NCBI RefSeq assembly: GCF_000341395.1
Contig: NC_020304.1
Location: forward strand, 2,520,001-2,552,000
Reading direction: 5' to 3'
DNA from: Desulfocapsa sulfexigens DSM 10523
Lineage (GTDB): Bacteria > Desulfobacterota > Desulfobulbia > Desulfobulbales > Desulfocapsaceae
DNA length: 32,000 nt
Shown here: positions 9,004-25,535 of the stretch, piece after piece
Numbering within the stretch: position 1 is the first letter of the stretch
Layout of the letters: the number at the start of each line of letters is the position of its first letter
Position numbers and translations under genes: made by a program
Notes under the pieces: generated by a model
The model's database searches: none
What the model was told of the DNA's origin: nothing
Seen by the model: the letters and a program-made list of their open reading frames with translations, nothing else

Positions 9004-9840
9004 TCAAGTGTAGATCGAATAACTAATAACAAGAAACCAGCATATTGATATAATCAACATGATTCGGTCATTGATTAGTATTTCCATAGGGTCACCCGAT
9101 TGTCCACACCAAATCCGATGCAGGTATCGTAAAAGCCCAAGGCAGCAAAGGGGGACTGTGTATATAAGAAATGGTCGGCCAATAACATAGATTGAATATG
9201 TCACCAAAACAGTTCCTCCAGTCATAAACATGATACTCTCAAGGAATCCCGTCCGGTATTGTGAGAGTACGGAGCGATGTGCTGAAGCGTTGGTGCGTAA
9301 AGATTTTTTTTCAGCCAACCGTTTGCCGGCTCCTAGAAAGAGAGCAAGAAAAAAAACAGTGAGAAACAGCCATTCAGAAACCGGAGTTGCAAAGGCTGCG
9401 CCTCCAGCCTCAAGGCGGAGAAGAAATCCAGTGGCAATACAAAAAATGTCTAATATAACGATCTGCTTCCACCAGATGCTATAGCAAATAATCAAGGTCT
9501 GATAGGCTAGAAGGTAAAGGAAAAATAGCCATGAGATTTGAGTGGCAAGTATTAGACTGAGGAGTGTAACAGTTGTTCCCAGGTATAAAGCTGATGTTTT
9601 TGAAATTTTCCCAGCAGGCAAGGGACGATTTTTTTTTGAATGATGCAGTTTGTCTTTCTCCAGGTCTGCAATATCATTAAATATATACATCCCACTTGCT
9701 CCGAGACTAAATGAAACAAAAGGAAGAATTAAGTGGGCGAGTGTTTCCGGTAGAAAGAAAATTCCTCCAAAAAACGGTGGAAAAATAAGCATCAGGTTTT
9801 TTAACCAGTGCCTTGGGCGGAGGAGTGTGTACCAGTGCAA
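9004..9840 (-). CDS. UbiA-family prenyltransferase, decaprenyl-phosphate phosphoribosyltransferase-like (Rv3806c type)
   Basis: 278-aa polytopic ORF. The TTG start at 9840 is preceded by AGAGGT. LLRPRHWLKNLMLIFPPFFGG and NDIADLEKDKLHHSKKNRPLPAGKIS match the family motifs. Confidence 0.7.
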   Translation of the reverse strand: MHWYTLLRPRHWLKNLMLIFPPFFGGIFFLPETLAHLILPFVSFSLGASGMYIFNDIADLEKDKLHHSKKNRPLPAGKISKTSALYLGTTVTLLSLILATQISWLFFLYLLAYQTLIICYSIWWKQIVILDIFCIATGFLLRLEAGGAAFATPVSEWLFLTVFFLALFLGAGKRLAEKKSLRTNASAHRSVLSQYRTGFLESIMFMTGGTVLVTYSIYVIGRPFLIYTVPLCCLGLLRYLHRIWCGQSGDPMEILINDRIMLIISICWFLVISYSIYT

Positions 9841-9848
9841 TGTTACCT

Positions 9849-11570
9849 CTATTTTCGTGAGAGTTTCTTCGCGTAGGTTTTATATGGGCTATCATCTGCG
9901 AATGCTTCGTAGGCCATTGTAAAATATTCTTTTGCTTGCTGTGTCTTTTGCAGTTCAAGGGATAGTTTGCCAAGATTATACCAGATAAAAGGGTCTTTCT
10001 TAATTTTGTATAATAGCGTACCACTTTTTCCTGCTTCTTTGTAGTAGCCTTCTCGTTCATCTTGATTATTGGTTTCCCTGGCCAGTTGAGAGTATGTAAT
10101 AAGTAAGCCATCCAAGGCAGGAGCGTATTTGTAGTCACTTTTTACTGATATTTGTTTGAAGGTGTCCAGGGCATCGTTGTATCTCGCAAGGTTAAAATAT
10201 ATAAAACCTAAATTTCTCTCAGCCGTATAATCTTTCATTAATGGGGGACTTTGTAAACTGCAAGCCATCTTAGTGACTTCAAGTGCCTTTTCATGGTCGC
10301 CCTTTTTTGAGAGTGCTGCGCCATAGACCCAATGAATCTTTTTTGAATATGGTGATTTTATTGATGTGTCTTCAAGGATTTTTAAATTGGAATGCCAGAT
10401 AAGACCTCGCTGATAAGTTGAATAGGAAAAAGCTATCAAAAGAATGACCATCAGTGGGCTATAAATCGACTGGTTCTTTCGCGATGGATTTCGTGCAAAT
10501 ATCCCAATAGTGCTCAAAAGAATAAAGGCCATACTTATATAGACATATCTTTCAGCAAAAGGGGTCCAGGCGATCTGGTTCAGGACAATTAAGAAGGAGG
10601 GGGTTAGTAAAATGATTCCAGTTAGAAAGAATGCGGCAAGGAGTGATCTGTTCCATAGTAGCCATATGCAGAGAATCACAATAGGAATAGCTAAAAGATC
10701 ATAGAGTGGATCAACTTCCAGTATGGCAAAGTTCAGAGGCCATGGGAAAAATATTTTTTTTATGTAAAAACCTAGAGCTCTGCAAAACAACATGAGCGAG
10801 TGTACAAGATTAATATCCATGTACTGAAGCGTCAGGCCGATTCTACTGGAGTTCGAAATTGTTCCCCCAGTGCGGATTATGAAAAAAAGGGCCAACGGAA
10901 TAGTAGTGGCGAGTGTGGCAAAAAGAATGAAGAGTCTGTTGTTTGAACTTTTTGAGTTGCTTTGTATAGTTGCTGGTATGGCGAACAGTATGAGTATGGC
11001 CCCTGGAATGAAGGCGACAGCCACTTCTTTGGAGAGCATTGCCAACAGACTGGCTATGGCTGCGAACAGTAGATACGTTTTTCGTTGAGATTGTCTGTAG
11101 TGTAAAATCAAAAGTGTCGCACCAAAGATAAACATTCCGGCTAGTAGGTCTGTACGTCCGGAAACCCAATTCACTGATTCTGTGGTCAAAGGGTGGAGGC
11201 CCCAGAGTAGTGCTGTGAAAAGTGGAAAATAATTTGGTTGTTTTTTGTTTACGGTAAACAGAAGTCGGGCGATATAAAAAAGTAGAAGGATAGAAATGAG
11301 GTGGAATAAAACATTTTCCAGATGCATCCAGAATGGGTTGATTTGAAATACGTTTTTATCGACCCAGAATGTTACACCAAGAATTGGGCGGTAATAAAGG
11401 GTTGATTTTCCTTTTCGGACGAATGTATCAAGAGGGTTGGAATAACTTCTGTGTTCAAGCGATGTGAAAAGTTGTGCATCGTCAACAGCACAGATCTCAG
11501 CAGAAAAAGAAGGGTAAAAAACAGCCAAACAGGCAAATATCAAAAAGAGAACCTGTGCCCGAACAGTCAT
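9849..11570 (-). CDS. GT-C fold membrane glycosyltransferase (TMTC/PMT_2/DUF1736-like) with C-terminal TPR repeats
   Basis: 573 aa. The N-terminal two thirds are polytopic and carry YYRPILGVTFWVD, NPFWMHLENVLFHLISILLLFYIARLL and WVSGRTDLLAGMF, which are TMTC-type signatures. The C-terminal 170 aa or so is TPR-like (KALEVTKMA..., ARYNDALDTFKQ..., QQAKEYFTMAYE). The ATGA overlap with the ABC ATPase stop is at 11567-11570. Confidence 0.65.
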   Translation of the reverse strand: MTVRAQVLFLIFACLAVFYPSFSAEICAVDDAQLFTSLEHRSYSNPLDTFVRKGKSTLYYRPILGVTFWVDKNVFQINPFWMHLENVLFHLISILLLFYIARLLFTVNKKQPNYFPLFTALLWGLHPLTTESVNWVSGRTDLLAGMFIFGATLLILHYRQSQRKTYLLFAAIASLLAMLSKEVAVAFIPGAILILFAIPATIQSNSKSSNNRLFILFATLATTIPLALFFIIRTGGTISNSSRIGLTLQYMDINLVHSLMLFCRALGFYIKKIFFPWPLNFAILEVDPLYDLLAIPIVILCIWLLWNRSLLAAFFLTGIILLTPSFLIVLNQIAWTPFAERYVYISMAFILLSTIGIFARNPSRKNQSIYSPLMVILLIAFSYSTYQRGLIWHSNLKILEDTSIKSPYSKKIHWVYGAALSKKGDHEKALEVTKMACSLQSPPLMKDYTAERNLGFIYFNLARYNDALDTFKQISVKSDYKYAPALDGLLITYSQLARETNNQDEREGYYKEAGKSGTLLYKIKKDPFIWYNLGKLSLELQKTQQAKEYFTMAYEAFADDSPYKTYAKKLSRK

Positions 11571-12439
11571 GCCTGTTCCCTGTTGATGAGTTCAAGAAAA
11601 TATTTTTCAAGATCCTTACGGAGTGGTTCAATAAGGCTAACTGGATCCGCCGTACTTTCACGACTTGTAAAGAAACGAGTAAGTTCGTTTTTGTCTATCC
11701 TCTGTTCATATATGCTTCCATCGGGATGTATAAGGTGGACAGCATAGCCGATGATGCCTTTTTGCATCACTTCAGACACCTTTTCAACAGCAATAAGTTT
11801 CCCATTTGCAATGATACCTATCCGATCACAGATTTGTTCAACATCCGAAATAATATGAGAAGAAAGAAATACGCATTTGCCGGCTTCTTTTAATTCAAGA
11901 ATGATTTCCTTGACAAGTGTACGCCCCAGAGGGTCAAGACCGGACATAGGCTCATCAAGAATATAAATATCTGGATTATGGACAAGTACCTGGGCAATTC
12001 CGAGACGCTGCACCATACCTTTACTGTAAATGCGAAGTGGTTTTTTTCGGACTTCCCAAAGTTTGAGGCGACGAAGGAGTGATTCTATTGTAACAGAAAG
12101 GTCGACTTTTTTTATTCCAAAGACCTGACCTGTGAAAAAGAGATATTCCTCTGCACTTAAGTAATCAAAAAAGGTTGGGTGCTCTGGTAGGTATCCTACG
12201 GTTTTTCTAGCTCTGGCGTCTGAAATATTAATTCCAGAGAGCTCTGCGTTGCCACTTGTGGGGCGAATAAGGTCAAGAAGGATTTTTATAGTCGTGCTTT
12301 TTCCAGCTCCGTTCGGGCCAAGAAAACCAAAAACTTCACCTTTATTTATTTGCAACGAAAGATTGTCCAGGGCGAGATTTGGGAGACCTTTTTTAGCTTT
12401 ATAAACTTTTGTCAGATTTGAAATTGAAATGGCTTGCAT
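11567..12439 (-). CDS. ABC transporter ATP-binding protein (ABC-2 type)
   Basis: I place the start at the ATG at 12439 (MQAISISNLTKVYK). Motifs present are Walker A GPNGAGKST, signature YSKGMVQRLGIAQ and Walker B IYILDEP. The ORF-track extension to 12562 overlaps the upstream gene. Confidence 0.9.
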   Translation of the reverse strand: MQAISISNLTKVYKAKKGLPNLALDNLSLQINKGEVFGFLGPNGAGKSTTIKILLDLIRPTSGNAELSGINISDARARKTVGYLPEHPTFFDYLSAEEYLFFTGQVFGIKKVDLSVTIESLLRRLKLWEVRKKPLRIYSKGMVQRLGIAQVLVHNPDIYILDEPMSGLDPLGRTLVKEIILELKEAGKCVFLSSHIISDVEQICDRIGIIANGKLIAVEKVSEVMQKGIIGYAVHLIHPDGSIYEQRIDKNELTRFFTSRESTADPVSLIEPLRKDLEKYFLELINREQA

Positions 12440-12449
12440 TTGGTGGTAA

Positions 12450-13328
12450 CTATTCGTTATTAGGCACAAAAGAGAATTTACTTGTGCTTCTTGGTTTTTT
12501 GTTTTTGTCGAGGTAAAAGGTACCTCCATATGGGTCAACCAGAGGAGCTGAGAGATATCCACCGAAAATAAGGGTGTTTATGTCAGACGGGCTGGTACCC
12601 TCTTGGGTAATGTATTTCTGTACAGCATCTTCTATGCGTTGCACTTCCTGCAGTGCTTGCAGGCGAAGTTGATAAGACTCCCGGACAGATTTATTTTTAG
12701 TATTCTTAACCATAGTGTCAAGATACACTACAGCCATGTCTGTTTCCCCGCCTTCATAGAGGTATCTGCCAGCTAAACGGCCGAAAAGTGGGGAGTGAGT
12801 GATTTTTTGCGCGAGCTTATAGTATTTAGCTGCTTTTGGATAATCCTTCAGGAAATAGCCATAGTTGAATCCTGCAAAAAATGGAAGATAAAAATCCCAA
12901 TCACGATATTGCATACCGTATTCAAGAAGTTCAGTTATTTCAGGAATATTTCTTTTATCCCAGGCCATTGCTTGGGCAAGATAGTAGCCATCCATATTAT
13001 ATGGGTCGAGTCTGGACGCGGTTTTGAGCAGAGTGAAGGTGTTTTCCTGCTCTGCTAATTGAGAATGATGACTCGGGTTAAGTTGAAGCAGATGGCCGGA
13101 ATGAAACACTACTTTCAAAATAAGTAGTACAGCTGTGAGATCTTTTTGATCAGTGGCGGCGAATTTTATAATGGCAGGTTGAAGAGTATAACCTATTTTT
13201 TGGAGAAAAGGCCGTTCCTGCATATAATGGGTGAAATGGGGCAGGATGCTAATGTGGCAAACAAGAGTAAAGAGTAGGAGTGTTGAGGCTGTCCTCACTG
13301 CATTTCCCTTTGTGAAAACAAAAGACAT
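12450..13328 (-). CDS. Hypothetical membrane-anchored or periplasmic TPR-like protein, accessory to the ABC-2 transporter
   Basis: 292-aa ORF with a hydrophobic N-terminus (TLLLFTLVCHISIL). It contains helical-repeat-like segments (YYLAQAMAWDK..., DYPKAAKYYKLAQ...). It is embedded between the permease and ATPase genes. Confidence 0.5.
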   Translation of the reverse strand: MSFVFTKGNAVRTASTLLLFTLVCHISILPHFTHYMQERPFLQKIGYTLQPAIIKFAATDQKDLTAVLLILKVVFHSGHLLQLNPSHHSQLAEQENTFTLLKTASRLDPYNMDGYYLAQAMAWDKRNIPEITELLEYGMQYRDWDFYLPFFAGFNYGYFLKDYPKAAKYYKLAQKITHSPLFGRLAGRYLYEGGETDMAVVYLDTMVKNTKNKSVRESYQLRLQALQEVQRIEDAVQKYITQEGTSPSDINTLIFGGYLSAPLVDPYGGTFYLDKNKKPRSTSKFSFVPNNE

Positions 13329-14086
13329 GCTATTCCAAGTATAATCCCGATATAACTAACTCCATAACTTGTTATCAACAATAAAGAACTACTGTTAAGA
13401 GTTAAGCCATAAGTGGCTTGGCTGGACAGGTCAAAAGCACTGAAATTTGGTAAAATGTAATAGAGGTACTTAGCCACTTGAATTGTCACTACTGATAACT
13501 GCTGACCTTGGTCTGTATGAATATAGTCAAATACTTCCTGGGTGGCACTCCCGGCAAGATAGGTCGCAATGGTACCAAAAATTGGTAGAAAAAAAGAAGT
13601 GCTTACTGAAGAAAGAACAAAAGCGATAGCAATAAGCAGAGAATATTTGAGGGCATCAAAAAATATGGCTATGGCTATATTATTCCAGAGTATTGGACGA
13701 TCAGGCGGGTATGCTGCGGCAGCAAACCAGATTGCTCCAACAGTCATGATTGCTAAAAACAAAGCTGTAATCAGGACAAAACCTATTATTCCAAAGTACT
13801 TACCAAGCAGGTAAGATGTTCGGGTGATCGGCATCCCGAGGGTGCTGTAAACGTATTTTCTTTCAATGTCCTTCCAAAGAGAGGTACCTCCTAAAAATAC
13901 GGAGATAAGTAAAAGGATAAATGATGTTAGGGATAAAGAAAGTGTAGTCGCCAGGGCGGCAACCTGTCGGAGAGAAAAAGTGCTTGCTGCAGGAATGGTG
14001 AGAAATATAACAGCTGTACAAACTATACCTTGGTATAACTTGTCTCGTAGTACTCCCTTGAAGCTTATTAGAAAGACTGAAAACAT
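13295..14086 (-). CDS. ABC-2 family transporter permease (NosY/ABC2_membrane-like)
   Basis: 263-aa ORF with about six hydrophobic spans. The N-terminus MFSVFLISFKGVLRDKLYQGIV is typical of ABC-2 permeases. ATG at 14086. Confidence 0.7.
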   Translation of the reverse strand: MFSVFLISFKGVLRDKLYQGIVCTAVIFLTIPAASTFSLRQVAALATTLSLSLTSFILLLISVFLGGTSLWKDIERKYVYSTLGMPITRTSYLLGKYFGIIGFVLITALFLAIMTVGAIWFAAAAYPPDRPILWNNIAIAIFFDALKYSLLIAIAFVLSSVSTSFFLPIFGTIATYLAGSATQEVFDYIHTDQGQQLSVVTIQVAKYLYYILPNFSAFDLSSQATYGLTLNSSSLLLITSYGVSYIGIILGIACLLFSQREMQ

Positions 14087-14096: not shown

Positions 14097-14150
14097 CAAC
14101 AGAGACAGAGCCGCGCCTGGCGACCTGTCTCTGTTGGTGTGGTTTTTTTT
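14097..14150. terminator. Perfect 12-bp stem-loop between the pilin module and the ABC operon (possible bidirectional terminator or attenuator)
   Basis: CAACAGAGACAG (14097-14108) pairs with CTGTCTCTGTTG (14125-14136) across a 16-nt GC-rich loop. T8 at 14143-14150 lies on the plus side. In minus sense the hairpin is followed by CATTTTATAAATGTTTTC. Confidence 0.5.
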
Positions 14151-14167: not shown

Positions 14168-14470
14168 TTAAAATCCACTTAATGTTGTTGCGTCTGCCTG
14201 GGTTGGGGGATCAGCGTCGGCGGCTAAATCTGTGGTAGACATATCTGTCATTGTATCAGTTGTTCCAAAAGCAGTTAATCCACCGGCGGTATGTTTACTT
14301 GCGGCAGCATAGGCCACGTTGGTGGCAGTAGCAGATATTACTACATTAGTTGATACTTTGAAGTCAGCATCGCCTAGCTGTGTGGATGCCGTATCGTCTA
14401 GCGTAGCTGCAAAAGCGGTCGCTGAAGAAAACATACTCATAATAAAAACAATACTTAATACCTTTTTCAT
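14168..14470 (-). CDS. Secreted Thr/Ala/Asp-rich small protein in the PilA-C position
   Basis: 100-aa ORF with a GGAGA Shine-Dalgarno sequence. It has a Sec-type signal MKKVLSIVFIMSMFSSATAFA|A. The mature 79 aa contain 17 Thr, 16 Ala, 10 Asp and no Cys (my count). It sits 55 nt downstream of the short pilin. Confidence 0.6.
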   Translation of the reverse strand: MKKVLSIVFIMSMFSSATAFAATLDDTASTQLGDADFKVSTNVVISATATNVAYAAASKHTAGGLTAFGTTDTMTDMSTTDLAADADPPTQADATTLSGF

Positions 14471-14525
14471 TATATATCTCCTGATAGAGTTGTTGATGTT
14501 GTTGTTTCTAATTTAAACCAAATAA

Positions 14526-14756
14526 TTACAGGTTCGGATATGCTTGGGCATCAGCATAGCCAGCTTCCATTGCTGTTTTGAAATTTCTCAGATCACTTTG
14601 AGCAGCTTTGTCAAAAGCTTTGGCACGGTATGAGGAAAACTGAGGAATAGCAATAGCAGCCAAAATACCAATAATTGCAACAACAATCATCAATTCAATC
14701 AGGGTAAAACCTTTCTGTCCGGATTTTCTTCGAAGCTGTTTCCGAAATGTGTTCAT
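14526..14756 (-). CDS. pilA: Truncated type IVa pilin, Geobacter PilA-N type
   Basis: 76 aa with an AGGAGA Shine-Dalgarno sequence. The prepilin leader ends ...GQKG|[60 protein letters not shown]. The mature protein is 60 aa with no globular domain and no Cys. Confidence 0.9.
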
Positions 14757-14839
14757 GTGATTTCTCCTATGTGAGGTGGGAGTTTAGGAGACCGTTTTTC
14801 GAATCCCCTCTTATTTATGTCTTACTTACCCAAACTACT

Positions 14840-14854
14840 TCAACAAGTATGCCA
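14840..14854 (-). promoter_or_regulatory. Weak candidate sigma-54 (-24/-12) element upstream of the short pilin
   Basis: The reverse strand reads TGGCATacttgTTGA. GG is correctly spaced, but the -12 element is GA rather than GC. It lies about 95 nt upstream of the ATG, with an AT-rich tract just upstream. An overlapping sigma-70-like TTGAAG...ATAAAT is an alternative. Confidence 0.3.
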
Positions 14855-14994
14855 TGAGTCGTTTAGAAATACAAATATTTATTTTATCTTATGAAAATAA
14901 TGAATTGGATCATGTTGAGTTGTTTGGGAATTGTTGCGAGAAGATGTAGAACCGGATTGAACTGACAAAAAAAAACATTCAATGACATTTATTG

Positions 14995-15366
14995 TCACTG
15001 AATACCACCAGCATCACTGTCGTAGGTAACAACCAAACCACCATGAACATTATCGGTAGTTGTAAAGCTAAAGGAGGTGCTGTTGCCAACCCAGTTACCC
15101 ACAGTGGTGTCAGGGGAGATATTGTTCCCTCCATAAATAGCCGTTTGTACTGCAGCAGCTGTGTTTGAGTAGGTACCATGGTCGGTAAAGTAGGCCACCT
15201 GAGCATTTGCTAATGTATGTGCGTCAGATTTAAGAACTGCTATAAAGGCTTTATTGCGATAGGCAGAATACTGCGGGATCGCTATAGCTGCCAGGATAGC
15301 AATGACAGCAACTACTGTCAAAAGCTCAACCAAACTAAAGCCTTTTTTATTTCTGTTTACTTTCAT
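14995..15366 (-). CDS. Full-length type IV pilin (PilE-like, or a major-pilin paralogue), cysteine-free
   Basis: I place the start at the ATG at 15366. MKVNRNKKG|[32 protein letters not shown]... is a class III signal with Glu5. A C-terminal domain of about 55 aa is present. The ORF-track N-terminal extension overlaps pilX. Confidence 0.85.
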   Translation of the reverse strand: MKVNRNKKGFSLVELLTVVAVIAILAAIAIPQYSAYRNKAFIAVLKSDAHTLANAQVAYFTDHGTYSNTAAAVQTAIYGGNNISPDTTVGNWVGNSTSFSFTTTDNVHGGLVVTYDSDAGGIQ

Positions 15367-15421: not shown

Positions 15422-15916
15422 TTACTCAACTCGCAAAACAAAGTCTATATTAGCCTGTTCACCACGAATGGGATTCGAAGAGTTCACATTAATTGAAACG
15501 AGGTCTATGATGTTTGTATTTGAAGTTATGGGGTCAATTTCATTTATAGTGGTGATGGACATATAGCAGGCTGTAAGGTCGACACAGCCATTTGCGTTAG
15601 TTTGTTTCCCGAGTGCTGCACAAACTGTACTGGAGATATCAATAGTTGATGCAGCTGCACATGTGTCAGGGGTAGTGTCACCAACACAGGTGTTACCACC
15701 ATTACACCTCAGGTTGGCTTGAACCAGTCTCCCCATTACGTAGTCAGATACGCCTTTGCCAGCATCCAGCTCAGAGATATAGCGTTTTTCAACGCCTGAC
15801 ATACGGGTACCAGTCAGCGTCATGAAGTAGGCTCCAGCAACAACTCCGAAAGCAACCAGGCCAAAGAGGAGAACAGTTATAAGGGCCATCCCTTTTTCAT
15901 TGTGAAGTATTTTCAT
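15422..15916 (-). CDS. PilX-like minor pilin
   Basis: 164 aa. MKILHNEKGMALITVLLFGLVAFGVVAGAYFMT is the PilX_N-type N-terminus. The periplasmic part contains six Cys. Confidence 0.7.
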   Translation of the reverse strand: MKILHNEKGMALITVLLFGLVAFGVVAGAYFMTLTGTRMSGVEKRYISELDAGKGVSDYVMGRLVQANLRCNGGNTCVGDTTPDTCAAASTIDISSTVCAALGKQTNANGCVDLTACYMSITTINEIDPITSNTNIIDLVSINVNSSNPIRGEQANIDFVLRVE

Positions 15917-15917
15917 A

Positions 15918-16931
15918 TTACCAACTCATTGGTTTAGCGCTGACTTTCAAAACTTTCCATCTATATTGAGAGAAATTAGTTACTGCTGCTGTATTAAAAC
16001 CATCGGCGGCGTTAGCAGCAGGCAGGGCTCCGTTCATGGTCAGGTCTCCGCTAAAAGTGTAGTTCGGATCCATTGCGCCAGATTGCATCAGAACATACAT
16101 ATCTATATTCTTCATACTACTTATTATATCACTGGTGGTAGAACCTACCGGGATAGTCGTTAGGTTAACCTCACCAGCATCTAATAAATCGCCATCATTA
16201 TTGAGATCCCAGTCGAAGCGTATCTGTATATCGGCCACACATTCAAGAATCCGATCACCGCCAGTTCCATTCAGTGCGTCTCCACCAACTCGTCGTAAAA
16301 GGTTCCGGGTTCCGGTGGCACATTTTGTCAATGTGTTTGTTGTACTGATCGAATAGGTGATGATATTGCAGTACTGTCCCCCAGTGGCCGTAGAACAGCC
16401 ATCGCTTACGGTGGCAACATAGGGATATGCTGACGCTATATAGTTATTAGCAGGAGTGAGGTTTGTGTTTAGGTCCTGACACGTGAGACATTGTGCCGTT
16501 GTTTGGGCGGCTATGCTTTGATTTGCAACGAATTGTTTGTCTTTTGATAGTAAGACAGCCGTGTTGACTGTAGTATCCTGTCTCCGGTCAACGATAACAG
16601 TTGGCACCGAACCTACGGTACAGTTCAAAAGGAGCCAGCCAATGGTTCCAGCATTACCATTATTTATGGTTGATCGCAGAGTGAGAGTTGTACCATCCCA
16701 AGCCATGGGAAGATTGGCCTCGTTGCTGGCAATACCAAAACCAACATGCTCAAGGTCGAGTCGAATCATTTCAGTTCCGATAATTTTCCCAAGTTCAGTT
16801 TCAGTAATGTTTTTTTGCGAATTTGCTCCCATTATAAGGCTTCTGAAAGTCTGGGATGATAATGTCAGGATGATAGTTATGATAAACATTGCTATCACAA
16901 GTTCAACAAGGGTGAATCCTCTATTTTTCAC
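15918..16931 (-). CDS. PilW-like minor pilin
   Basis: 337 aa. The GTG start forms a GTGA overlap with the pilV-like stop. It begins MKNRG|FTLVELVIAMFIITIILTL. Size and position fit PilW. Confidence 0.7.
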   Translation of the reverse strand: MKNRGFTLVELVIAMFIITIILTLSSQTFRSLIMGANSQKNITETELGKIIGTEMIRLDLEHVGFGIASNEANLPMAWDGTTLTLRSTINNGNAGTIGWLLLNCTVGSVPTVIVDRRQDTTVNTAVLLSKDKQFVANQSIAAQTTAQCLTCQDLNTNLTPANNYIASAYPYVATVSDGCSTATGGQYCNIITYSISTTNTLTKCATGTRNLLRRVGGDALNGTGGDRILECVADIQIRFDWDLNNDGDLLDAGEVNLTTIPVGSTTSDIISSMKNIDMYVLMQSGAMDPNYTFSGDLTMNGALPAANAADGFNTAAVTNFSQYRWKVLKVSAKPMSW

Positions 16932-17338
16932 TTGTTTGCCACGATGGTAGAAGTTGTATTAGTGTATTGTTTTCCTTTTGTGCTCCAAGTTACCTGAACT
17001 CCGACAGATTTTGCAACAGTAGATACAGCCTGGGTGACGGTTACTTCCGTTGTAAAGGTGACGTTAGCATTGTTTACCTGACGCTGATAATTGACCTGAG
17101 CTTTTGTACCCAAATCGAGGAGGCTATTATTGTACGGGATATTCCGGTAGTCCGTCAATATCTCATCCGCCAGACGGACAGCATGGTCTCTTAGGGTGTT
17201 GTTTGTTGAAAATTGGTATAGGCCAGAAAGGGCCTTCAAACTACCAAGCATCATAACCGCAAGAATGACAATTGCAATTAGTGCCTCAAGTAACGTAAAG
17301 CCTTTTTTATTTCGCATCACAGGATGAAGTTGCGACAT
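16928..17338 (-). CDS. PilV-like minor pilin
   Basis: ...MRNKKG|FTLLEALIAIVILAVMMLGSLKAL is PilV-type. I chose the ATG at 17338 because GGGAGGG precedes it. The ATG at 17317 would give a 6-aa leader. Confidence 0.75.
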   Translation of the reverse strand: MSQLHPVMRNKKGFTLLEALIAIVILAVMMLGSLKALSGLYQFSTNNTLRDHAVRLADEILTDYRNIPYNNSLLDLGTKAQVNYQRQVNNANVTFTTEVTVTQAVSTVAKSVGVQVTWSTKGKQYTNTTSTIVANK

Positions 17339-17750
17339 TCCATTTTCCCTCCCGAACACTACTGTTAGCTATGTTGATACATGAATACTCAGTTATGGGG
17401 GTCGTCAGGCGGATAAAGCCTCCAACATTGAAAAGTCCTCTGCTGTTTATAGTAAACGTCCCTGCTGAGCCGGTAAAATCATTGTTCATGTCAACCAGAT
17501 CAGTATCCAGGTCGTTTGTGAGCTGGTTGGTGGCAACTGTTATGATTATCGGAGTCTTTTGGGTAAAAGCTTTTAAACGTTTGTCTTGAAGAAATGTGAT
17601 CATTTTATCAAGGTCCGTTTGTATAACATGCACAGTTGATATCTGTTTATAAGCAACCATGGCAGCTCCCATCAAAATCGCCCCTATAGCTAACGTAACG
17701 ACGATTTCAACCAAGGTGAACCCTTTTGTGTTGGTTATTTTTCCAGCCAT
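17307..17750 (-). CDS. FimU/GspH-like minor pilin
   Basis: 147 aa beginning MAGKITNTKG|FTLVEIVVTLAIGAILMGAAMVAY. It is the first minor pilin after pilY1. Confidence 0.7.
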   Translation of the reverse strand: MAGKITNTKGFTLVEIVVTLAIGAILMGAAMVAYKQISTVHVIQTDLDKMITFLQDKRLKAFTQKTPIIITVATNQLTNDLDTDLVDMNNDFTGSAGTFTINSRGLFNVGGFIRLTTPITEYSCINIANSSVREGKWNVATSSCDAK

Positions 17751-20700
17751 AAAATGATTTCTCCAGTTAAACTTGGGCTGGGAGGAATAAATGGAGTGGG
17801 TGATTCAGGAGGAATACCGGTAAACCACTTTGTGGACTTGCCGCCTTCCTCGGAGAAATCGTCTTCATTTAAGCCTGCTCCTTCTATGTTACCACCACTG
17901 AGCTGGAGGAGTAAAGAACCATCTCTGTAGTCAGTTGTGTAGCCATCACAGCCTCCCCAGATACTGTCTCCAGACATGCAGTTGAGCGCCCACATTCTTG
18001 AACGACCACCAAAATCGCAAGGATTGGATGATGGTTGCATGGTAGTAAAAAATACTATGTTAGTACCATTCGCAAAAGTGGGATCAGTAATTGTCCGTTC
18101 CTTTGCGTAGCTATCACCTTTTGGCTCCAGTTCGTCAACAACCCAGCCTAACGTTTTCTCGTCATCAAGATTGCCTACTTCCTGACATATGTCATTATTG
18201 TTGTGAGCGTAGTTAAGAGAACATGTTTTACCTGCAAGAATATCATTCAGACAATCTCTTATGAGTATGCCGTATAATTTTTCTGTTTTTGTCTGGTTTA
18301 CGCCAGGAGAATCGTCTTTGTAAAACCAACGACCGGTACCAAAGTAGATCATTGGATAATTGAAGCAGTCTCCATATACGATTTTTGAAGTAACTGGATA
18401 ATCGGTCGATTCGACAACTGAATCAAAATACCAGTTTGGTGTTTCATCCGTTCCCGCGGTAACATCAGCCTTGTCCGTTGGGTCGTAGCTGGTAATATTA
18501 CCATCTCCATCAACAGCGTTTTTGGGGACGAGGGCAATCACGGTTCCAGCTGTACCATTGGCATCATTGACACCAAAAAAGACTATGTCGGTATTTCCGT
18601 CACGATCCTGATCAATGCCATTGGTGAATAAGCGGCCACCAAAGGCGCTGTTATATGATCCCAATTCTGAGTCAGTGATGAAGCCGTCCTTTTTACTGTC
18701 TCCGGTGAATTTGAATATATCGTCAGCATCAGTATCACCATCGTTATCCACATCAACGAGGTTGAAATCACTGTCAACTTTCAGCATAAATACATTTAAA
18801 TTTTGGGCATCCACACTGCCTTGGTCACCATTGGTTTCGGCCCTGTAGTTCAGGGGACCACTGGTAAACATGACGTAGGCGTTGCCGCCTCGCTTTATGT
18901 ATGCAGGTCCGGAGTAGGTTAAGCCAAGGTTAGGGTGAGTGAATTCCCATAAAAAAACGGGATTTCTCGGATCAGAGATGTCAAGAGCGAAATAGGAAGA
19001 CAGACCTACGGCAGATTCGGGTGTTAATGGGTCTGCTCCGGGAGCAACCACCTGTGTTCCATCGTCAGGATCACCACACCATCTGTCTTTTGATTCGTAG
19101 GTACATCCGGCAGCACCACCAAATCGCATTCCACCGATTATAATATCTTTAGTGCCGTGCTTAATGCGGTAAGGTGCCATATCTGTAGTATAGATATGTT
19201 TGTAAGCAGGGTCTGTAAGATATTTCAGATACGGCATGGCATTTTGCGGGATAAAGGCCCAAAGTTCTTCACCCACTTCGTCCTGAAGACAAGAAGCATC
19301 AGAATTGTTGTCACAGAGGCGAACCGCCTGTTCAGTTGTGAGTCCATCTGTTCTGATTTTGCCGGCATGAAAGGCATGGAGCATTCCATCGTTTGCCGCA
19401 GCAAGAACGATTGAGAAATTTTCGTTGTCGACAACCTGGGGGGTTGAATAAATAATATCACCAAGTTTCCAGATTTCTCCAGCGTCATTTACAACACGGT
19501 TACGACAGGCACTACTTGTCACTTTGTCACTTGTGCCACTGAAGTCATCTGCGGCCCCGCGAATATAACTCATGAGGTTTATCGATCGAATCTCTTCAAG
19601 TTTGTCAGCATCTGGCGGGTCGGTTTCGTCAGCCGCAACACCAAGACAATCAGGGATATCTGTCTGTGTCTCGTCCAGGCGCATATTCTTTTTAAAGAGG
19701 GTGTAGTTATCAGCAAGGAATTCGCTCATGGTTCCAGATTCGTTTATGCCATAAATCGTACGGCCACCATTGCTTCCTGCTACCCATTCGTCGGGAGTAG
19801 CAACGTCACGTTTTTGAAGCTGATAGCCACCTTCCCATATTCTGCTAACGTCATCAATTGAGTTGTAGGAACCCAGTAATGCATCAGCCTTTCCATCGTC
19901 ATCATTTTGGCTGTCGATAAGGCTGTAGTAATCAATGTTCAGGCTGCCTTCAGCGTCAATTCTGAAGTCGAGAGCATGATCGTCATGCGTATCAAGATAA
20001 AATTCTGTTCCAACAGCATTATCTTCTCTGATGTTTGATACTGTGCCGGAATTAAAGAACCAGTAAGTATTGAGAGCGCCTGTCCATAAAAGGGATCGTG
20101 TGGTTCCGTCATCGATAAATGATTTTTCAGGAAAAAAGAGGGCCTGATGAATAATGGAACCTTCAGTAGCTCGTTCTGAAAGTACAGAGATCGAGGATCC
20201 TGCAGCAGTTTTTGTCAGGATGTTCGAAAAGGCATCAGCAAGTGCGGTTTCGAGCTGGTGCCCATCGTCAGCAGCGTAGGCTTCTCCATTACCATTGTCA
20301 GCGGTATCCTGAAGAATCTGCGGGATTGTCGCTTTTCCAAAAGCAACAGTATAGGTTTCAATATGTTGGTTTCCTGTCATTCCCGTGTCATCGCGCAGAT
20401 CACGGAAGTCTGAAGTGTCTTTGTCCCAGTAGGCCCAATAGGCGAGGTCGTCTAAGATGTCTTGGCAACCATTTGCCGTGTCTCCACTATCTGAACAATC
20501 GTCCGTGTTACTGTCATCGTCATAGTCAACAGTGTCCGCTGTACCATTACCTGTGGAGTCATAAAAATCAGGAACGTAATCATCTCTGTAGGGTTCGCCA
20601 TCTGTGAAAATTAAAACAAAAGATTTGGCACAGCGAATAGTCTCCTCATATTCATCAAAATAATATGGATCCCAGAGATGTGTCGCCCCATCGGGGTCAT

Positions 20701-22681
20701 CCACCTTGTAATTGTAGGTGGTCCCAATTGTTGGTTTGTCTTCATAGTATGGGGTATCTTGTTGGAAGTATCTGAGGACCTCGTAGTAATTTTCCGCAAG
20801 AGGCGTTGTCCCCCAAACAAGAGGATAATGTTCGATTGCGTCTACAACATCAGCGAGTGGGGCTTTAATGGGAGTGTCAATAGTACGATAAGTGGCTGGG
20901 GCTTTAATGAACGGATTGTTCGGGATATCCAGACTCATTGTTCCGCCGTGAGCCCATTCCTGGTTGTAAATATCTGTTTCCCCATCGTCGTCTTTTTGGT
21001 AACGATAAAAGCTGATGCCTAGACGTACATCACCTTCGAGTTCATGAAGGAGGCCGGTGGGTTCTTCTTCAACAATCAGGGCTATATTGAAGGATGTAGG
21101 AGGTGGAGGATTGATGATAATATATCCAACATCTTCATTGCTGTGAGTTACGTCATTATCAACGGAGGACTCCTCATCTATAAAAATCTCTACAGAATCA
21201 GAGCCAAGTGAGCGGTAACGAATACTCGCCGGGTCTGTATCATTGCTTGTCTGCATGTCGGCGAGAAAGATTGGTCCCTGCTTTTCTGTCCCAAAAGTAA
21301 TTTCTTTCCAGGTGTGGTTAACATCTGTTTCAGTGCCAACCTCAAAATTCAGGATCCCGACATCGTACGTTCCCTGCTCAAGGGCAAGGTAAGCAACCGT
21401 TTCATTTGTGTGACCTCCACCTGCATCTTCCTCCTGCAGTTGTATTTCGAAGGAACCATCGTTATTAATATTTTTAAGACGGGTTGTTGTGGTATCACCT
21501 CCATTGTTGGTATTAACAGTGCTTAAAATTACCGGTTTGGAGGCATATCCGAGTGCAGCCACGGAAGTCCAGGCATCATTAACTGTTTTTGTTCCAGCAA
21601 CCAGTCGCTGACCATTTTCCAGAGTGTAGCTTCCTGCTTCCAGAACGATATAGGAGATATCTTCATTGGTATGGGCCTTATTGGTGATATATTCCCATTC
21701 TTCAATCCGGATTTTGAATGATCCAGTCAGCACGTTGTCGACTCTTACAACGGATGGGTCGCTTCCATTGTACGAAAGAGGTCTGGCTAGAACAACTGGA
21801 TTGGCGTAATCAGTTTTTGTTAGGGCTACAGTCTCCCAGTTATCGGCACCTGAATCGGCTGAAAGGTTGCTTATAATTCCAGCTTCTCCAATGACTGTAC
21901 CGTTTTCGTCAACAATAATATTTGGGATTTTGTTGGAAAGTTTGGCATAGGGGTCGTAAAGTGTTTGGGTAGTACCATCTTCAGCAGGACTTGAAACTGT
22001 GAATGTTGAAGTTGCTGGAAAAGGTGAGTAGTTTTGTGCTGAACTATAGGATTTACAAATAGAACCATCACTTCTTTCGTTATTGCCTACAATCTTCCAC
22101 TCAAGGTCTGTCGGGTCATCTGTGAAGTAATTGTAGCCGGCACGACTTTCGACTTTTCCACCAATCATAACCTGTCTCGCAGCATCTATGCGTCGCGTTA
22201 CAATCCAGTTTAGAAAGTTACCACTCCAGCAATTATTCCCAAGTCCCAATGTGCAGGTGGAGTCTTCTTTGAAAGCACCAGTGGAGGTCGTGTCTACCGC
22301 AACATTATAGGGCATACCTGCTGCACCGGAAAAAGGACTTGGATCTACGGCAATTGTTGCGTCATAACTGTATGTTTTCGTTGAATCAAACATTCCATAA
22401 TATGTGAAGTCTGAGTCAAAGGCAGTGTCAGTATTCTTGCAGTTGTATCCAGTTGTTTGGCCAAGCGGATTTTTCATGCTCCCGGAGTTGTCAAGCATGA
22501 ACATGACATTTGGCGCAAGTTGAGCTCCCAGGAACGGCGGGACAGCATTGTAGTCATCACAACTGGCAGCAGTGAGCTGCGATGGTAGAATGATGGTGGT
22601 GGCAAAAGCAGCAAAGGTTGCCAGGGCAACATAGAGCACCCGTTGATGGTACCATGAAAATTGCAGTGATTTTTTTGACAT
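17735..22681 (-). CDS. pilY1: Giant PilY1/PilC-like tip-adhesin protein with an N-terminal vWA domain and a C-terminal beta-propeller
   Basis: The ORF-track start at 22696 is TTG and falls inside the GGAGGAG Shine-Dalgarno sequence, so I use the ATG at 22681 (MSKKSLQF..., signal peptide). vWA motifs are the MIDAS VMFMLDNSGSM, then GTTPLAENYYEVLRYF, FVLIFTDGEP and TYTVAFG. The PilY1 propeller hallmark is GDIIYSTPQVV...VLAAANDGMLHAFHAG...GEELWAFIP. Ca-binding-like loops are DVDNDGDTDADD and DQDRDGNTDIVFFG. Confidence 0.85.
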   Translation of the reverse strand: MSKKSLQFSWYHQRVLYVALATFAAFATTIILPSQLTAASCDDYNAVPPFLGAQLAPNVMFMLDNSGSMKNPLGQTTGYNCKNTDTAFDSDFTYYGMFDSTKTYSYDATIAVDPSPFSGAAGMPYNVAVDTTSTGAFKEDSTCTLGLGNNCWSGNFLNWIVTRRIDAARQVMIGGKVESRAGYNYFTDDPTDLEWKIVGNNERSDGSICKSYSSAQNYSPFPATSTFTVSSPAEDGTTQTLYDPYAKLSNKIPNIIVDENGTVIGEAGIISNLSADSGADNWETVALTKTDYANPVVLARPLSYNGSDPSVVRVDNVLTGSFKIRIEEWEYITNKAHTNEDISYIVLEAGSYTLENGQRLVAGTKTVNDAWTSVAALGYASKPVILSTVNTNNGGDTTTTRLKNINNDGSFEIQLQEEDAGGGHTNETVAYLALEQGTYDVGILNFEVGTETDVNHTWKEITFGTEKQGPIFLADMQTSNDTDPASIRYRSLGSDSVEIFIDEESSVDNDVTHSNEDVGYIIINPPPPTSFNIALIVEEEPTGLLHELEGDVRLGISFYRYQKDDDGETDIYNQEWAHGGTMSLDIPNNPFIKAPATYRTIDTPIKAPLADVVDAIEHYPLVWGTTPLAENYYEVLRYFQQDTPYYEDKPTIGTTYNYKVDDPDGATHLWDPYYFDEYEETIRCAKSFVLIFTDGEPYRDDYVPDFYDSTGNGTADTVDYDDDSNTDDCSDSGDTANGCQDILDDLAYWAYWDKDTSDFRDLRDDTGMTGNQHIETYTVAFGKATIPQILQDTADNGNGEAYAADDGHQLETALADAFSNILTKTAAGSSISVLSERATEGSIIHQALFFPEKSFIDDGTTRSLLWTGALNTYWFFNSGTVSNIREDNAVGTEFYLDTHDDHALDFRIDAEGSLNIDYYSLIDSQNDDDGKADALLGSYNSIDDVSRIWEGGYQLQKRDVATPDEWVAGSNGGRTIYGINESGTMSEFLADNYTLFKKNMRLDETQTDIPDCLGVAADETDPPDADKLEEIRSINLMSYIRGAADDFSGTSDKVTSSACRNRVVNDAGEIWKLGDIIYSTPQVVDNENFSIVLAAANDGMLHAFHAGKIRTDGLTTEQAVRLCDNNSDASCLQDEVGEELWAFIPQNAMPYLKYLTDPAYKHIYTTDMAPYRIKHGTKDIIIGGMRFGGAAGCTYESKDRWCGDPDDGTQVVAPGADPLTPESAVGLSSYFALDISDPRNPVFLWEFTHPNLGLTYSGPAYIKRGGNAYVMFTSGPLNYRAETNGDQGSVDAQNLNVFMLKVDSDFNLVDVDNDGDTDADDIFKFTGDSKKDGFITDSELGSYNSAFGGRLFTNGIDQDRDGNTDIVFFGVNDANGTAGTVIALVPKNAVDGDGNITSYDPTDKADVTAGTDETPNWYFDSVVESTDYPVTSKIVYGDCFNYPMIYFGTGRWFYKDDSPGVNQTKTEKLYGILIRDCLNDILAGKTCSLNYAHNNNDICQEVGNLDDEKTLGWVVDELEPKGDSYAKERTITDPTFANGTNIVFFTTMQPSSNPCDFGGRSRMWALNCMSGDSIWGGCDGYTTDYRDGSLLLQLSGGNIEGAGLNEDDFSEEGGKSTKWFTGIPPESPTPFIPPSPSLTGEIILWLEK

Positions 22682-22770
22682 ATTCTGCTCCTCCAAAATT
22701 CTATCTGTCTGTCAGAAATCTGTATTGTGTCTCTGTTTTGTAATGATGTATTAAAAGTCAATGAATTGCT

Positions 22771-22786
22771 AGCAAATAATGTTCCA
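22771..22786 (-). promoter_or_regulatory. Candidate sigma-54 promoter of the pilY1/minor-pilin operon
   Basis: The reverse strand reads TGGAACattatTTGCT, which has GG-N10-GC spacing and one mismatch to TGGCAC-N5-TTGCW. It lies about 90 nt upstream of the ATG at 22681. Confidence 0.45.
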
Positions 22787-23273: not shown

Positions 23274-25535
23274 ATGAAAAATCTAAAACTGGCAGTGAAA
23301 GGAATGCACTGCGCGGCCTGTTCCAGTCGTATCGAAAAGGTTGTCGGTGGGATGGATGGTGTTGTGAGGGCTTCGGTGAACCTGGCAACGGAAACCATGG
23401 AGCTGCAATGGGATGAAACACAACAGAGTTTTGATGAAATTGCAGAGCGCGTGGCAGGCATGGGTTTTGAACTTGAGTCCATAAGTGCTCAGCAAGATCT
23501 TTTTGAGCAAAACAGAGCTGAGACCGCTGCTCGTCTTGCACTTATGAAGAAGAACCTGATCTTCTCGATGCTTCTTGCCATTCCTCTCTTTACTATCTCC
23601 ATGGGGGAGATGATGGGCCTGCCTTTGCCTGAAGTTCTCAATCCTCATACGCATCCGCAGAATTTTGCCCTGATTCAGTTTGTTCTTGTTGTTGCCATCA
23701 TGTTCCTTGGCCGTAATTTTTATATAAACGGTTTTCCGGCTTTGTTCAGGCGGGTTCCCAACATGGACTCCCTTATTGCCGTCGGTACCGGCGCTGCGTT
23801 TGTCTACTCAACCTGGAACATGGTTGAGATCCTAATGGGAATACATGTGCAGATGAAGGTTATGGATCTCTATTTTGAATCTGCTGGTGTTTTGATAGCT
23901 CTGGTATCTCTGGGCAAGTATATGGAGACCCGTTCCAAGTCTCATACCTCCGAGGCTATCAGCAAGCTTATGCAACTGACTCCTGAGACTGCAACTGTGC
24001 TGGTTGGGGATGAGAAGGCATTTGAACAGAAAACAATCCCGGCAGAGGAAATACAAGAAAACGATATCCTTCTTATTCGTCCAGGCGACAGAATCCCGGT
24101 TGATGGTATTATTATTAAGGGGAATAGTGTTGTTGATGAATCTATGCTTACTGGAGAGAGTCTTCCTGTTTCTAAAACTGAGGGGGATGTGATTATTGGA
24201 GGTACTTTGAATTCCAATGGTGTGTTGCATGTTCGGGCTCAGCAGGTGGGGCAGGATACCATGTTGTCACGTATTGTCCGGATGGTCCAGGAAGCACAGG
24301 GATCCAAGGCTCCAATAGCTGGAATGGCTGATCGCATCAGTCTCTATTTTGTTCCTGTTGTTATGGTCTTTGCCGTGTTCACCGGACTTTGCTGGTATTT
24401 TGTAGGGAGTGCTGACTTCTCAACGTCACTTCGATTCTTCATTGCCGTCCTCGTCATTGCCTGTCCGTGTGCCATGGGCCTTGCAACTCCCACATCTATA
24501 ATGGTCGGTACGGGCAGAGGGGCACAGCTTGGCGTCCTGGTAAAGAGTGGTGAGGCGCTCGAGATGGCAGAGAAAATAGATGCTGTCGTCTTTGATAAAA
24601 CAGGTACCCTGACCCATGGAAAACCAGAGCTTACGGATATCCTGACTGTTGAGAATGAGATGGACACCAAAGATTTTCTTTTTCTTGCGGCATCCTGTGA
24701 ACAGAATTCGGAACACCTCCTGGCTATGGCCCTTGTGGCTGGTGCGGTTGCTGAAAACATCAGCCTGATACAGCCTCATGAATTTGAGGCAGTGCAGGGT
24801 AAGGGGATTCAGGGGCAGGTGGATGGCAGAACAGTGTTGCTTGGCAATAAACAGTTGTTGAAAGAAAAAGGTGTCGGGGTCAGTCAGCTGGAAGCAAAAG
24901 TAAATGAATTATCCGCCGAGGGAAAAACCGTCCTCTATCTCGCTGTGGATAACAGCTTTGTGGCCATCTTCGCTGTTGCTGATACTCTGAAAACTGAAGT
25001 GCCAGCTGCGATTGGGCGTATGCGTGAAATGGGTTTGCGATTGATCATGCTTACCGGGGATCAGGAAGCAACAGCGAATGCCATTGCCAGGCAGGCCGGG
25101 TTGACCGAGGTGATCTCACAGGTGCTGCCAGATAAAAAGGCAGACGTCATACAAGATCTTCAGAAAAAAGGGCTGAAGGTTGCCATGGTCGGAGACGGTA
25201 TTAATGATGCACCGGCACTTGCTCGTGCCGATGTCGGTATTGCGATGGGAACCGGAATTGATATTGCTATTGAATCAGGTGATATTGTCATCATGAAGGG
25301 CAATCTCGATGGGGTGATTACCTCTCTAGCACTCTCGCGTGCCGTGATGCGAAATATTCGTCAAAATCTGTTCTGGGCTTTTGGTTATAATGTTGTAGGT
25401 ATTCCTGTTGCAGCAGGACTACTCACGCTCTTTGGTGGGCCCGCCCTCAATCCTATGATTGCGGGTGGAGCAATGGCACTGAGTTCTGTGTCTGTGGTAT
25501 CCAACGCTCTGCGCCTTCGTTTTTTTAGGGTTTGA
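23274..25535 (+). CDS. copA: Copper-translocating P1B-type ATPase
   Basis: 753 aa with an N-terminal HMA domain ([15 protein letters not shown]). Other motifs are TGES, the CPC motif [11 protein letters not shown], the phosphorylation site DKTGTLT and the hinge [11 protein letters not shown]. Confidence 0.95.

Follow-up and report, generated by a model that had tools for sequence, protein, structure and literature searches.

Does a single locus of Desulfocapsa sulfexigens preserve both the undivided and the divided forms of one ancestral type IV pilin? The question was raised by a prediction that was made from the sequence of a 32,000-nucleotide (nt) stretch of D. sulfexigens DSM 10523 (NC_020304.1, positions 2,520,001 to 2,552,000; G+C content 43%), which is referred to here as the window. 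Three neighboring genes on the minus strand of the window specify a prepilin of 76 amino acids (aa) (pilA-N, 14526..14756), a secreted protein of 100 aa encoded 55 nt downstream (pilA-C-like gene, 14168..14470) and a full-length pilin of 123 aa encoded upstream (14995..15366). The original prediction regarded the first two as counterparts of PilA-N and PilA-C, the separate halves of the Geobacter pilin, and the third as a paralog in which the fused state persists. The three open reading frames lie at the positions that were claimed, every peptide string that was quoted for them was recovered, and the 100-aa frame is identical to UWK_02274 of strain DSM 10523. The analysis described here indicates that the locus probably encodes a Geobacter-type split major pilin, and that the 123-aa neighbor belongs to a different family and is not the unsplit form.

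The short pilin, its secreted partner and their gene block

The 76-aa prepilin includes the N-methylation motif KG|FTLIEL, with glycine at -1, phenylalanine at +1 and glutamate at +5, and removal of the leader before the phenylalanine would produce a mature form of 60 aa (this and all other processing sites were read from the sequence). The protein matched PF07963 (N_methyl) at 5e-11 and TIGR02532 at 9e-11. The chains deposited in the PDB as 'Geopilin domain 1 protein' (7tgg_A, 9egp_A and 2m7g_A) were matched with expectation (E) values of 3e-26 to 2e-23, and ordinary pilins in the same database scored 1e-10 or worse. The mature short pilin is identical to Geobacter sulfurreducens PilA at 44 of 60 positions, a comparison in which the first 58 residues were taken from the alignment with PDB entry 2m7g and which agrees with the earlier estimate of about 44/60. 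The aromatic residues F1, F24, Y27, F32, Y51 and Y57 are retained together with an extra F43, as also had been claimed. Among 5.8 billion proteins, 119 of the 120 nearest relatives are 66-79 aa long, and these relatives include proteins of Geobacter pickeringii and of an Oryzomonas metagenome-assembled genome (MAG). On sequence criteria the short pilin belongs to the clade of truncated pilins.

The 100-aa protein commences with a Sec signal peptide (MKK...ATAFA|A), cleavage of which would leave the 79-aa mature product that the original prediction deduced. No Pfam or NCBIfam model matches the protein or its 22 relatives, and a word-indexed homolog search with the protein returned nothing beyond itself. 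The relatives, which are 97-114 aa in length, emerged when 1.84 billion representatives were searched exhaustively with phmmer; all possess a signal peptide, and their common consensus is GGxxFKPSTxV...YAAxSKHxxGxxxYGT. A profile constructed from the 22 relatives matched the PDB chains designated 'Geopilin domain 2' (9egp_B, 9.4e-11; 7tgg_a, 6.2e-10; 6vk9_D, 2.1e-5), with no other PDB chain below 0.1. The 6vk9_D entry is a mature chain without a signal peptide and still was matched at the value given. Because the family profile matches the Geopilin domain 2 chains and nothing else below 0.1, the 100-aa protein is judged from its sequence to be a small relative of PilA-C, and the similarity that had been expected from gene position thus is detectable at the profile level. 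The AlphaFold2 (AF2) model of the protein is all-beta with six strands (predicted local distance difference test, pLDDT, 75).

A nearly invariant histidine (H60 in the window protein, within the motif SKHxxG) is common to the PilA-C-like family, to 9egp_B and to fused pilins of other lineages in which it lies in the motif T(A/S)THxxG; G. sulfurreducens GSU1497 has asparagine at this position. An origin of the split by frameshift or pseudogene formation was considered and is out, as the second gene has its own ribosome-binding site and signal peptide and the arrangement is kept in many relatives. The ~100-aa partner represents a sizeable PilA-C subfamily, mostly metagenomic, that is without a Pfam or NCBIfam model, and a PilA-C profile could improve the annotation of such pairs.

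The split pair is followed on the same strand by a conserved module (9004..14086) in which Pfam matches identify an ATP-binding cassette (ABC) type 2 (ABC-2) permease (13295-14086), a 292-aa protein (12450-13328), an ABC ATPase (11567-12562), a PMT_2/TPR glycosyltransferase-like protein (9849-11570) and a UbiA prenyltransferase (9004-9840). The seven genes from pilA-N to UbiA are collinear with those of the Geobacteraceae locus L014, at 30-54% identity, where the order is pilR, pilA-N, pilA-C, permease, 292-aa protein, ABC ATPase, PMT-like and UbiA. In all five contexts of PilA-C-like genes that were examined (5/5; L001/L002, L090 and L091 included) a gene for a prepilin of 74-77 aa comes immediately before, and an ABC-2 permease gene immediately after. 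Further split pairs were revealed when 80 GTDB loci were screened with a hidden Markov model (HMM) of the PilA-C-like family. The loci came from a genome scan with the short pilin in which the matches listed were mostly generic pilins, and neither D. sulfexigens nor G. sulfurreducens was among the matches listed. The pairs belong to a Geobacteraceae MAG (L014), a Syntrophobacteria MAG (L019) and a Thermodesulfovibrio MAG (L010). Overall, the proposal that the 76-aa and 100-aa proteins form a Geobacter-type split pilin is borne out by the match of the first to Geopilin domain 1 (3e-26), by the profile match of the second to domain 2 and by the seven-gene synteny.

The Thermodesulfovibrio sp. 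locus (Nitrospirota; JALUAR010000202.1, 5926-6568) holds a complete split pair in which the short pilin is 72% identical to that of the window (tblastn) and the PilA-C-like protein, of 111 aa, is matched at E 4e-13. This occurrence suggests that the split pair has been transferred horizontally beyond the former Deltaproteobacteria.

A candidate sigma-54 (-24/-12) promoter, TGGCATacttgTTGA, is located at 14840..14854 on the minus strand, 98 nt 5′ of the pilA-N start codon. The element, TGGCAT-N5-TTGA, has two mismatches to the sigma-54 consensus, and the bare pattern is not significant. In four split-pilin loci the regions upstream have diverged and no other block is invariant; the element is positioned there at -98 to -103, with the L001, L090 and L091 copies at -102/-103 from the pilA-N start codons. 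Because the element is invariant across four regions that otherwise have diverged, its identification as a putative sigma-54-type promoter of the split pair is supported. The pilA gene of G. sulfurreducens is RpoN- and PilR-dependent. The Geobacteraceae locus L014 has TGGTCT-N5-TTGC instead of the element.

The 123-aa pilin and the fused state

The leader of the 123-aa pilin (MKVNRNKKG|F) would be removed to give a mature protein of 114 aa. The protein matches PF07963 at 1.7e-8, and the start codon assigned by NCBI is a GTG at 15378 which yields 127 aa. Its homologs, termed here the 127-aa family, are full-length proteins of 125-129 aa that are 45-59% identical and have YDSDAGG[IL]Q at the C terminus. 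The AF2 model (pLDDT 89) comprises a helix at residues 12-63 and strands at 87-94, 99-105 and 112-116, and the best Foldseek match was Thermus PilA4 (6xxd_A, template modeling score, TM, 0.67), with 1ay2 and 5vxx also returned. The protein therefore displays the prepilin leader, the long alpha-1 helix and, in the AF2 model, the antiparallel beta-sheet head that are canonical for type IVa pilins. It has no disulfide-bonded D-region: the cysteine count is 0, and many members of the family have just one. Cysteine also is absent from the short pilin and the 100-aa protein, and the PilX-like and PilW-like minor pilins of the window have six and seven cysteines, respectively, in accord with the earlier count. 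The 123-aa protein, a full-length and compact type IVa pilin with no cysteine, falls in a family other than that of the split pair.

In longer contigs, genes of the 127-aa family directly follow a pilR-like gene and precede TPR, PMT_2, GT2 or methyltransferase genes. One set of loci has two such genes in tandem, and none of the family members in these contigs is within a minor-pilin operon. These clusters match the pilA cluster of cable bacteria, in which pilA is accompanied by TPR and sugar-modifying genes (PMC10580974); the match is a resemblance of gene clusters only. The gene in the window instead is the last of the minor-pilin/PilY1 operon, with no promoter of its own identified, and no PilE-specific Pfam or NCBIfam model matches its product. 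The role of the 123-aa pilin is that of a PilE-like connector, if judged from the position of the gene, or that of an alternative major subunit, if judged from the slot that the family occupies elsewhere. The original prediction envisaged that its reading would fail if this protein grouped with PilE-type minor pilins and were unrelated to the short pilin beyond the generic N-terminal helix. The latter part of that description applies, although the family resembles major pilins more than PilE.

The proposal that the 123-aa pilin is the unsplit form of the pair was examined by comparison of the C-terminal domains. BLASTP of the C-terminal region of the 123-aa pilin against the 100-aa protein gave an E value of 6.5, and hhalign probabilities were 0.2-1% overall, at 0.2% for the C-domain of the 127-aa family with the PilA-C-like profile and 1.1% for the full-length profile comparison. 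An iterative HMM search over 261 local C-domains converged on 46 PilA-C-like domains with the 127-aa family outside, the window protein being at rank 96 with an E value of 2.9. The positive controls behaved differently. The C-domains of eight small fused pilins were matched to the PilA-C-like family by hhalign with a probability of 89.5% (E 1.9e-6), and fused controls were found in the iterative HMM search at 1e-6 to 1e-3. The weak resemblance to the secreted protein that was described earlier for the C-terminal domain of the 123-aa pilin thus was visual only. The alignment on which it was founded (NVHGG... vs KHTAGG...) is without statistical support, although its register is that of a weak transitive alignment considered below.

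The N-terminal helix provides a second comparison. Over residues 29-58, PilA-N is identical to the 123-aa pilin at 9 of 30 positions, which is the median of 266 pilins (113/266 have the same value or higher), compared with 16-27/30 for other split PilA-N proteins and mostly 15-19/30 (full range 11-19/30) for fused PilA-C-like pilins. Across the mature protein PilA-N shares 30/60 residues with its 123-aa neighbor vs the 44/60 shared with Geobacter PilA. Because PilA-N is far closer to Geobacter PilA than to the neighbor, any split predates the D. sulfexigens genome. In the closest relatives of the split pair, minor-pilin genes are adjacent and no such full-length pilin is found beside the pair; conversely, the 127-aa family is present elsewhere without a split pair. 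The 123-aa gene also lies outside the slot directly before the ABC-2 module, from which it is separated by the split pair and by an intrinsic-terminator-like hairpin with a U9 run (14974..15006, minus strand). The hairpin, which was detected by a terminator scan and by folding (z -3), consists of a 12-bp stem followed by UUUUUUUUU. Because the stop codon of the 123-aa gene overlaps the hairpin and U9 run, the gene closes a pilY1-fimU-pilV-pilW-pilX operon, and the split pair forms a unit of its own.

Fused counterparts of the pair are found in other lineages. The eight small fused pilins are P0040, its tandem neighbor in L006, L023 (Gemmatimonadota MAG), L008 (Bdellovibrionales MAG), L081, L013b and two in L022. 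Longer examples, which were recovered in the iterative search at 1e-5 to 1e-3, are L027 (Geobacteraceae MAG, 224 aa), P0083, P0050 and L013a (Zetaproteobacteria MAG). The fused pilins of L027, L008, L006 and L013 are encoded after pilR or pilB-pilC-pilSR and directly before the ABC ATPase/permease/292-aa module. These full-length pilins of other lineages, in the same slot, are the true counterparts of PilA-N plus PilA-C in fused form. As the fused pilins exhibit both positional orthology and the profile match, the published hypothesis that the split pilin arose by gene fission (Shu et al., 2016; PMC5174107) is supported. Relocation of the unsplit counterpart to other genomes provides a cleaner and testable picture of that hypothesis. 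As a separate observation, tandem paralogous major pilins of the same type occur in L003-L005 (8001-8889), L006 (6523-7402), L013 (5869-6926) and L022 (5462-6399), unlike the two adjacent pilin genes of the window which are of different families.

A number of results weigh against the reading of the locus as a Geobacter-type split pilin beside an unrelated pilin. In the case of the pair itself, the 100-aa protein alone matches 7tgg_a only at E 1.2, by way of FKVSTNV vs FKPSTNV; part of the best PilA-C profile scores is owed to the signal peptide, so that membership rests on the family profile; and a Foldseek search of the PDB with the AF2 model had a best E value of 1.8 and returned no 6vk9, 7tgg or 9egp chain. 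The -12 element of the window is an unusual TTGA and not TTGC, and the pilS/pilR genes (28754-31696) are ~14 kb upstream of pilA-N instead of adjacent. In the case of the neighbor, the fused-pilin profile aligned with the tail of the 127-aa family at an hhalign P value of 0.006, with the conserved histidine and the TYdSDaGG tail in register, and the fused pilin P0040, which has a PilA-C-like core, shares the DSDAGG tail with the 127-aa family. These last two points are in favor of paralogs in which the fused and the fissioned state of a single ancestral pilin are kept, and to them may be added the adjacency of the genes, the lack of cysteine in all three proteins and the shared N-terminal 28 residues, the latter a feature of all type IVa pilins. 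The histidine and tail are compatible with no more than the remote common origin that type IVa pilin heads in general would be expected to share. That the 123-aa pilin and the PilA-N/PilA-C pair are such paralogs is highly improbable in view of the negative direct comparisons, the exclusion of the 127-aa family from the iterative HMM, the helix identity at the median value, the closer kinship of PilA-N with Geobacter PilA, the separate distributions of the two families and the terminator between the two units. The claim that fused and fissioned states stand side by side in the window is rejected because the C-domain tests fail where the controls pass, the helix is at the median and close relatives of the pair are without such a pilin. 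The 123-aa protein consequently is not a preserved fused state; it is of a separate family and in a separate transcription unit.

Flanking genes and further transcription signals

The minor-pilin operon (15422..22696, minus strand), in which N_methyl, PilX_N, PilV and GspH-type matches were obtained, encodes PilY1-like (17735-22696, 1653 aa), FimU/GspH-like (17307-17750), PilV-like (16928-17359), PilW-like (15918-16931) and PilX-like (15422-15916) proteins. The PilY1-like protein has no Pfam match at E 0.001 or better and shares 48% identity with an L001 protein in which PilY1 Pfam domains are present. A near-consensus sigma-54 element with one mismatch, TGGAAC-N5-TTGC, is present at 22772-22786 on the minus strand ~76 nt 5′ of the start codon of the PilY1-like gene, and the minor-pilin operon also may be RpoN-dependent.

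The regulatory genes of the window encode a pilR-like sigma-54 response regulator (28754-30088, minus strand; Pfam Sigma54_activat, Response_reg and HTH_8) and a pilS-like histidine kinase (30095-31696, minus strand; Pfam HisKA and HATPase_c). The PilR-like protein is 42% identical to the product of the pilR gene that directly precedes pilA-N in L014. The interval between pilR and pilA-N in the window is occupied by copA-, sat- and aroB-like genes and by the minor-pilin operon. The first of these blocks (23274-28743) is on the plus strand, opposite to the pilin genes; it specifies a copper-type P-type ATPase, ATP sulfurylase (sat), 3-dehydroquinate synthase and a Zn-ribbon protein, and it interrupts the Geobacteraceae arrangement in which pilR is directly before pilA-N.

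Within the split-pilin unit, no terminator-like hairpin was flagged between pilA-N and pilA-C by the terminator scan, and the pilA-C-like gene has its own ribosome-binding site, AGGAGA. A strong stem-loop between pilA-C and the ABC-2 permease gene (14097..14136, minus strand) is a candidate terminator or attenuator. Its minimum free energy is -28.1 kcal/mol (z -5.97 vs shuffles) and its U-tract is weak; it may act as an attenuator or as an mRNA-stabilizing element that sets the ratio of pilin to exporter. The 5′ untranslated region of pilA-N (~14765-14815, minus strand) includes a short stem-loop that also is present in L001 and L090, with arms that vary between loci yet remain complementary (GAAACC...GGTTTC in L001 and GAAGCCG...CGGTTC in L090). 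A conserved AAACTCC(C)AC motif comes next, immediately ahead of the GGAG ribosome-binding site, and the stem-loop may be a post-transcriptional control element. A scan of the window against Rfam identified no family.

In L001, L019, L027, L008, L006, L013 and L090, too, split or fused pilins are followed by the first part of the ABC module. The ABC-2 permease, the ~290-aa protein and the ABC ATPase are encoded directly after PilA-C-type pilins in Geobacteraceae, Syntrophobacteria, Bdellovibrionales, Zetaproteobacteria and Desulfocapsa, and PMT/TPR and UbiA genes also follow the module in two loci. The ABC ATPase of the window would correspond, by position only, to Geobacter xapD/GSU1501. In a xapD-deficient Geobacter strain PilA reportedly was undetectable (bioRxiv 10.1101/114900).

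Proposed assembly of the split pilin and relation to known systems

From the homology of both halves, their gene pairing and synteny, and the promoter and terminator signals, we infer the following course of heterodimer formation, assembly and regulation. PilA-N would be cut by prepilin peptidase to the 60-aa pilin that consists of the N-terminal helix only. The pilA-C gene most likely is co-transcribed with pilA-N, and its product would be exported by the Sec pathway and cut after AFA by signal peptidase I to give the 79-aa beta-sheet protein. The two proteins would pair at the outer face of the inner membrane where, by analogy with the Geobacter filaments, the heterodimer would take the place of one ordinary pilin; the deposited Geobacter-type filaments 6VK9, 7TGG and 9EGP contain both chains (domain 1 plus domain 2). 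The heterodimer then could be polymerized by the type IVa machinery, primed by the neighboring PilY1 and minor pilins. Transcription of the split pair would proceed from the conserved sigma-54-type promoter, presumably driven by the PilS/PilR proteins of the window, and the 123-aa pilin would be transcribed with the minor pilins, ending at its own terminator.

Alternatively, PilA-N alone might polymerize into thin, aromatic-rich homopolymeric 'e-pili', as in the Lovley/Reguera model, with the 100-aa protein acting only as a periplasmic stabilizer or chaperone. The in-silico criteria for e-pilins published by Bray et al. (bioRxiv 10.1101/668343) are an aromatic content of at least 9.8%, an aromatic-free gap of no more than 22 aa, and aromatic residues at positions 1, 24, 27, 50/51 and 32/57. 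The short pilin, at 11.7% aromatic residues with a maximum gap of 22 and with F1, F24, Y27, F32, Y51 and Y57, passes these thresholds, and its description as e-pilin-like by aromatic density holds. The 114-aa mature pilin also passes, however (10.5% aromatic residues; maximum gap 22; aromatics at 1, 24, 27, 32, 50, 51 and 57), which shows that the thresholds are unspecific and do not single out the truncated pilin. GSU1497 has been described as necessary for PilA stability (PMC5174107), which would befit a stabilizer. The role of pilins in conductivity is disputed, and the literature is divided on whether the product is a surface pilus, a periplasmic secretion pseudopilus or a filament of PilA-N only (PMC9207759). 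The warning in the original prediction against assuming conductivity was appropriate. Filaments composed of PilA-N alone nevertheless are unlikely: domains 1 and 2 are held together in the 6vk9, 7tgg and 9egp filaments, and the strict two-gene pairing in the five contexts, like the fused versions found elsewhere, speaks for the C-protein as the globular domain that PilA-N lacks.

A division of labor between the two pilins of the window also was weighed, in which the 123-aa pilin would be the surface major pilin for twitching and adhesion and PilA-N/PilA-C would form a short periplasmic secretion pseudopilus. Gu et al. are said to have proposed such a pseudopilus for Geobacter PilA-N/PilA-C in 2021, and the proposal has a place in the literature (PMC9207759). 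The 123-aa protein is a well-predicted canonical pilin, as the confidence of its model and the similarity to Thermus PilA4 attest, and elsewhere genes of its family fill the pilA slot next to pilR, often as tandem copies, like the cable-bacteria cluster (PMC10580974). Against this, the gene in the window is last in the minor-pilin operon, the position of Pseudomonas PilE, with no promoter of its own identified, whereas the split pair has the conserved sigma-54 promoter that is typical of major pilins. The division of labor is possible but somewhat doubtful, and the split pair as the Geobacter-type major pilin is preferred.

A broader and more speculative reading is that two alternative filament subunits, the compact full-length pilin of the family known from cable-bacteria-like pilA clusters and a 'mini' split heterodimer with a sigma-54 promoter of its own, share one minor-pilin/PilY1 set, and that PilA-C-type pilins and the ABC module compose a functional, as yet uncharacterized pilin-exporter unit. 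It is advanced tentatively, and with less confidence than the split-pilin assignment itself. PilA-C-type pilins, whether fused or split, are tightly tied across phyla to one ABC module, which points to such a unit. It would fit the reported loss of detectable PilA in the Geobacter xapD mutant. If the same machine does assemble both subunits, D. sulfexigens would be a natural test of surface pili vs a periplasmic secretion pseudopilus. The organism could serve as a second experimental system for the dispute among pseudopilus, pilus and e-pilus. The literature consulted contained no paper that ties Desulfocapsa to pilins or e-pili beyond incidental mentions.

The closest known systems are PilA-N/PilA-C of G. 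sulfurreducens (GSU1496/GSU1497; 6VK9 and 7TGG) and the 9EGP pair. These share with the window the same truncated 60-aa pilin, which is 73% identical and has the same aromatic positions, and the same Sec-exported, beta-rich partner immediately downstream, matched at the profile level. A putative sigma-54-type promoter element and the ABC-2 exporter, PMT and UbiA genes downstream also are common to both. In contrast, the host here is a sulfur disproportionator of the Desulfobulbales and not a metal reducer of the Desulfuromonadales. The PilA-C protein of the window is smaller than GSU1497 (79 vs ~104 aa when mature), is without an insertion of ~10 residues and keeps the histidine that has been lost in G. 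sulfurreducens; and, unlike in Geobacter, pilR is distant, with the minor-pilin operon and housekeeping genes between. The fused pilins resemble the split pair in the N-terminal helix, in the homologous C-domain and in the ABC slot, but are single genes of other lineages, several with pairs of cysteines.

The 123-aa pilin has other affinities. It shares with Thermus thermophilus PilA4 (6XXD) a compact fold of alpha-1 and a small beta-sheet, but is only 27% identical to that protein and has no disulfide. Its 127-aa homologs are found in pilR-pilA(-pilA)-TPR-PMT-GT2 clusters similar to the pilA clusters of cable bacteria, whereas the D. sulfexigens gene ends a minor-pilin operon. In that respect it is like Pseudomonas aeruginosa PilE, a major-pilin-like protein encoded by the last gene of the minor-pilin/PilY1 operon (fimU-pilVWXY1Y2E), but there is no PilE-specific sequence match, pilY1 is first in the operon here, and the family fills major-pilin slots elsewhere. 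Split pilins, PilA-C and the idea of fission already are known, and the locus is no new kind of system. What is new is the occurrence of a split pilin in a cultured, sulfur-disproportionating member of the Desulfobulbales, by which the Geobacter-type pair with its whole downstream gene block is extended outside the Desulfuromonadales, together with the compact PilA-C subfamily that is without a curated model and the cross-phylum association of such pilins with the ABC module.

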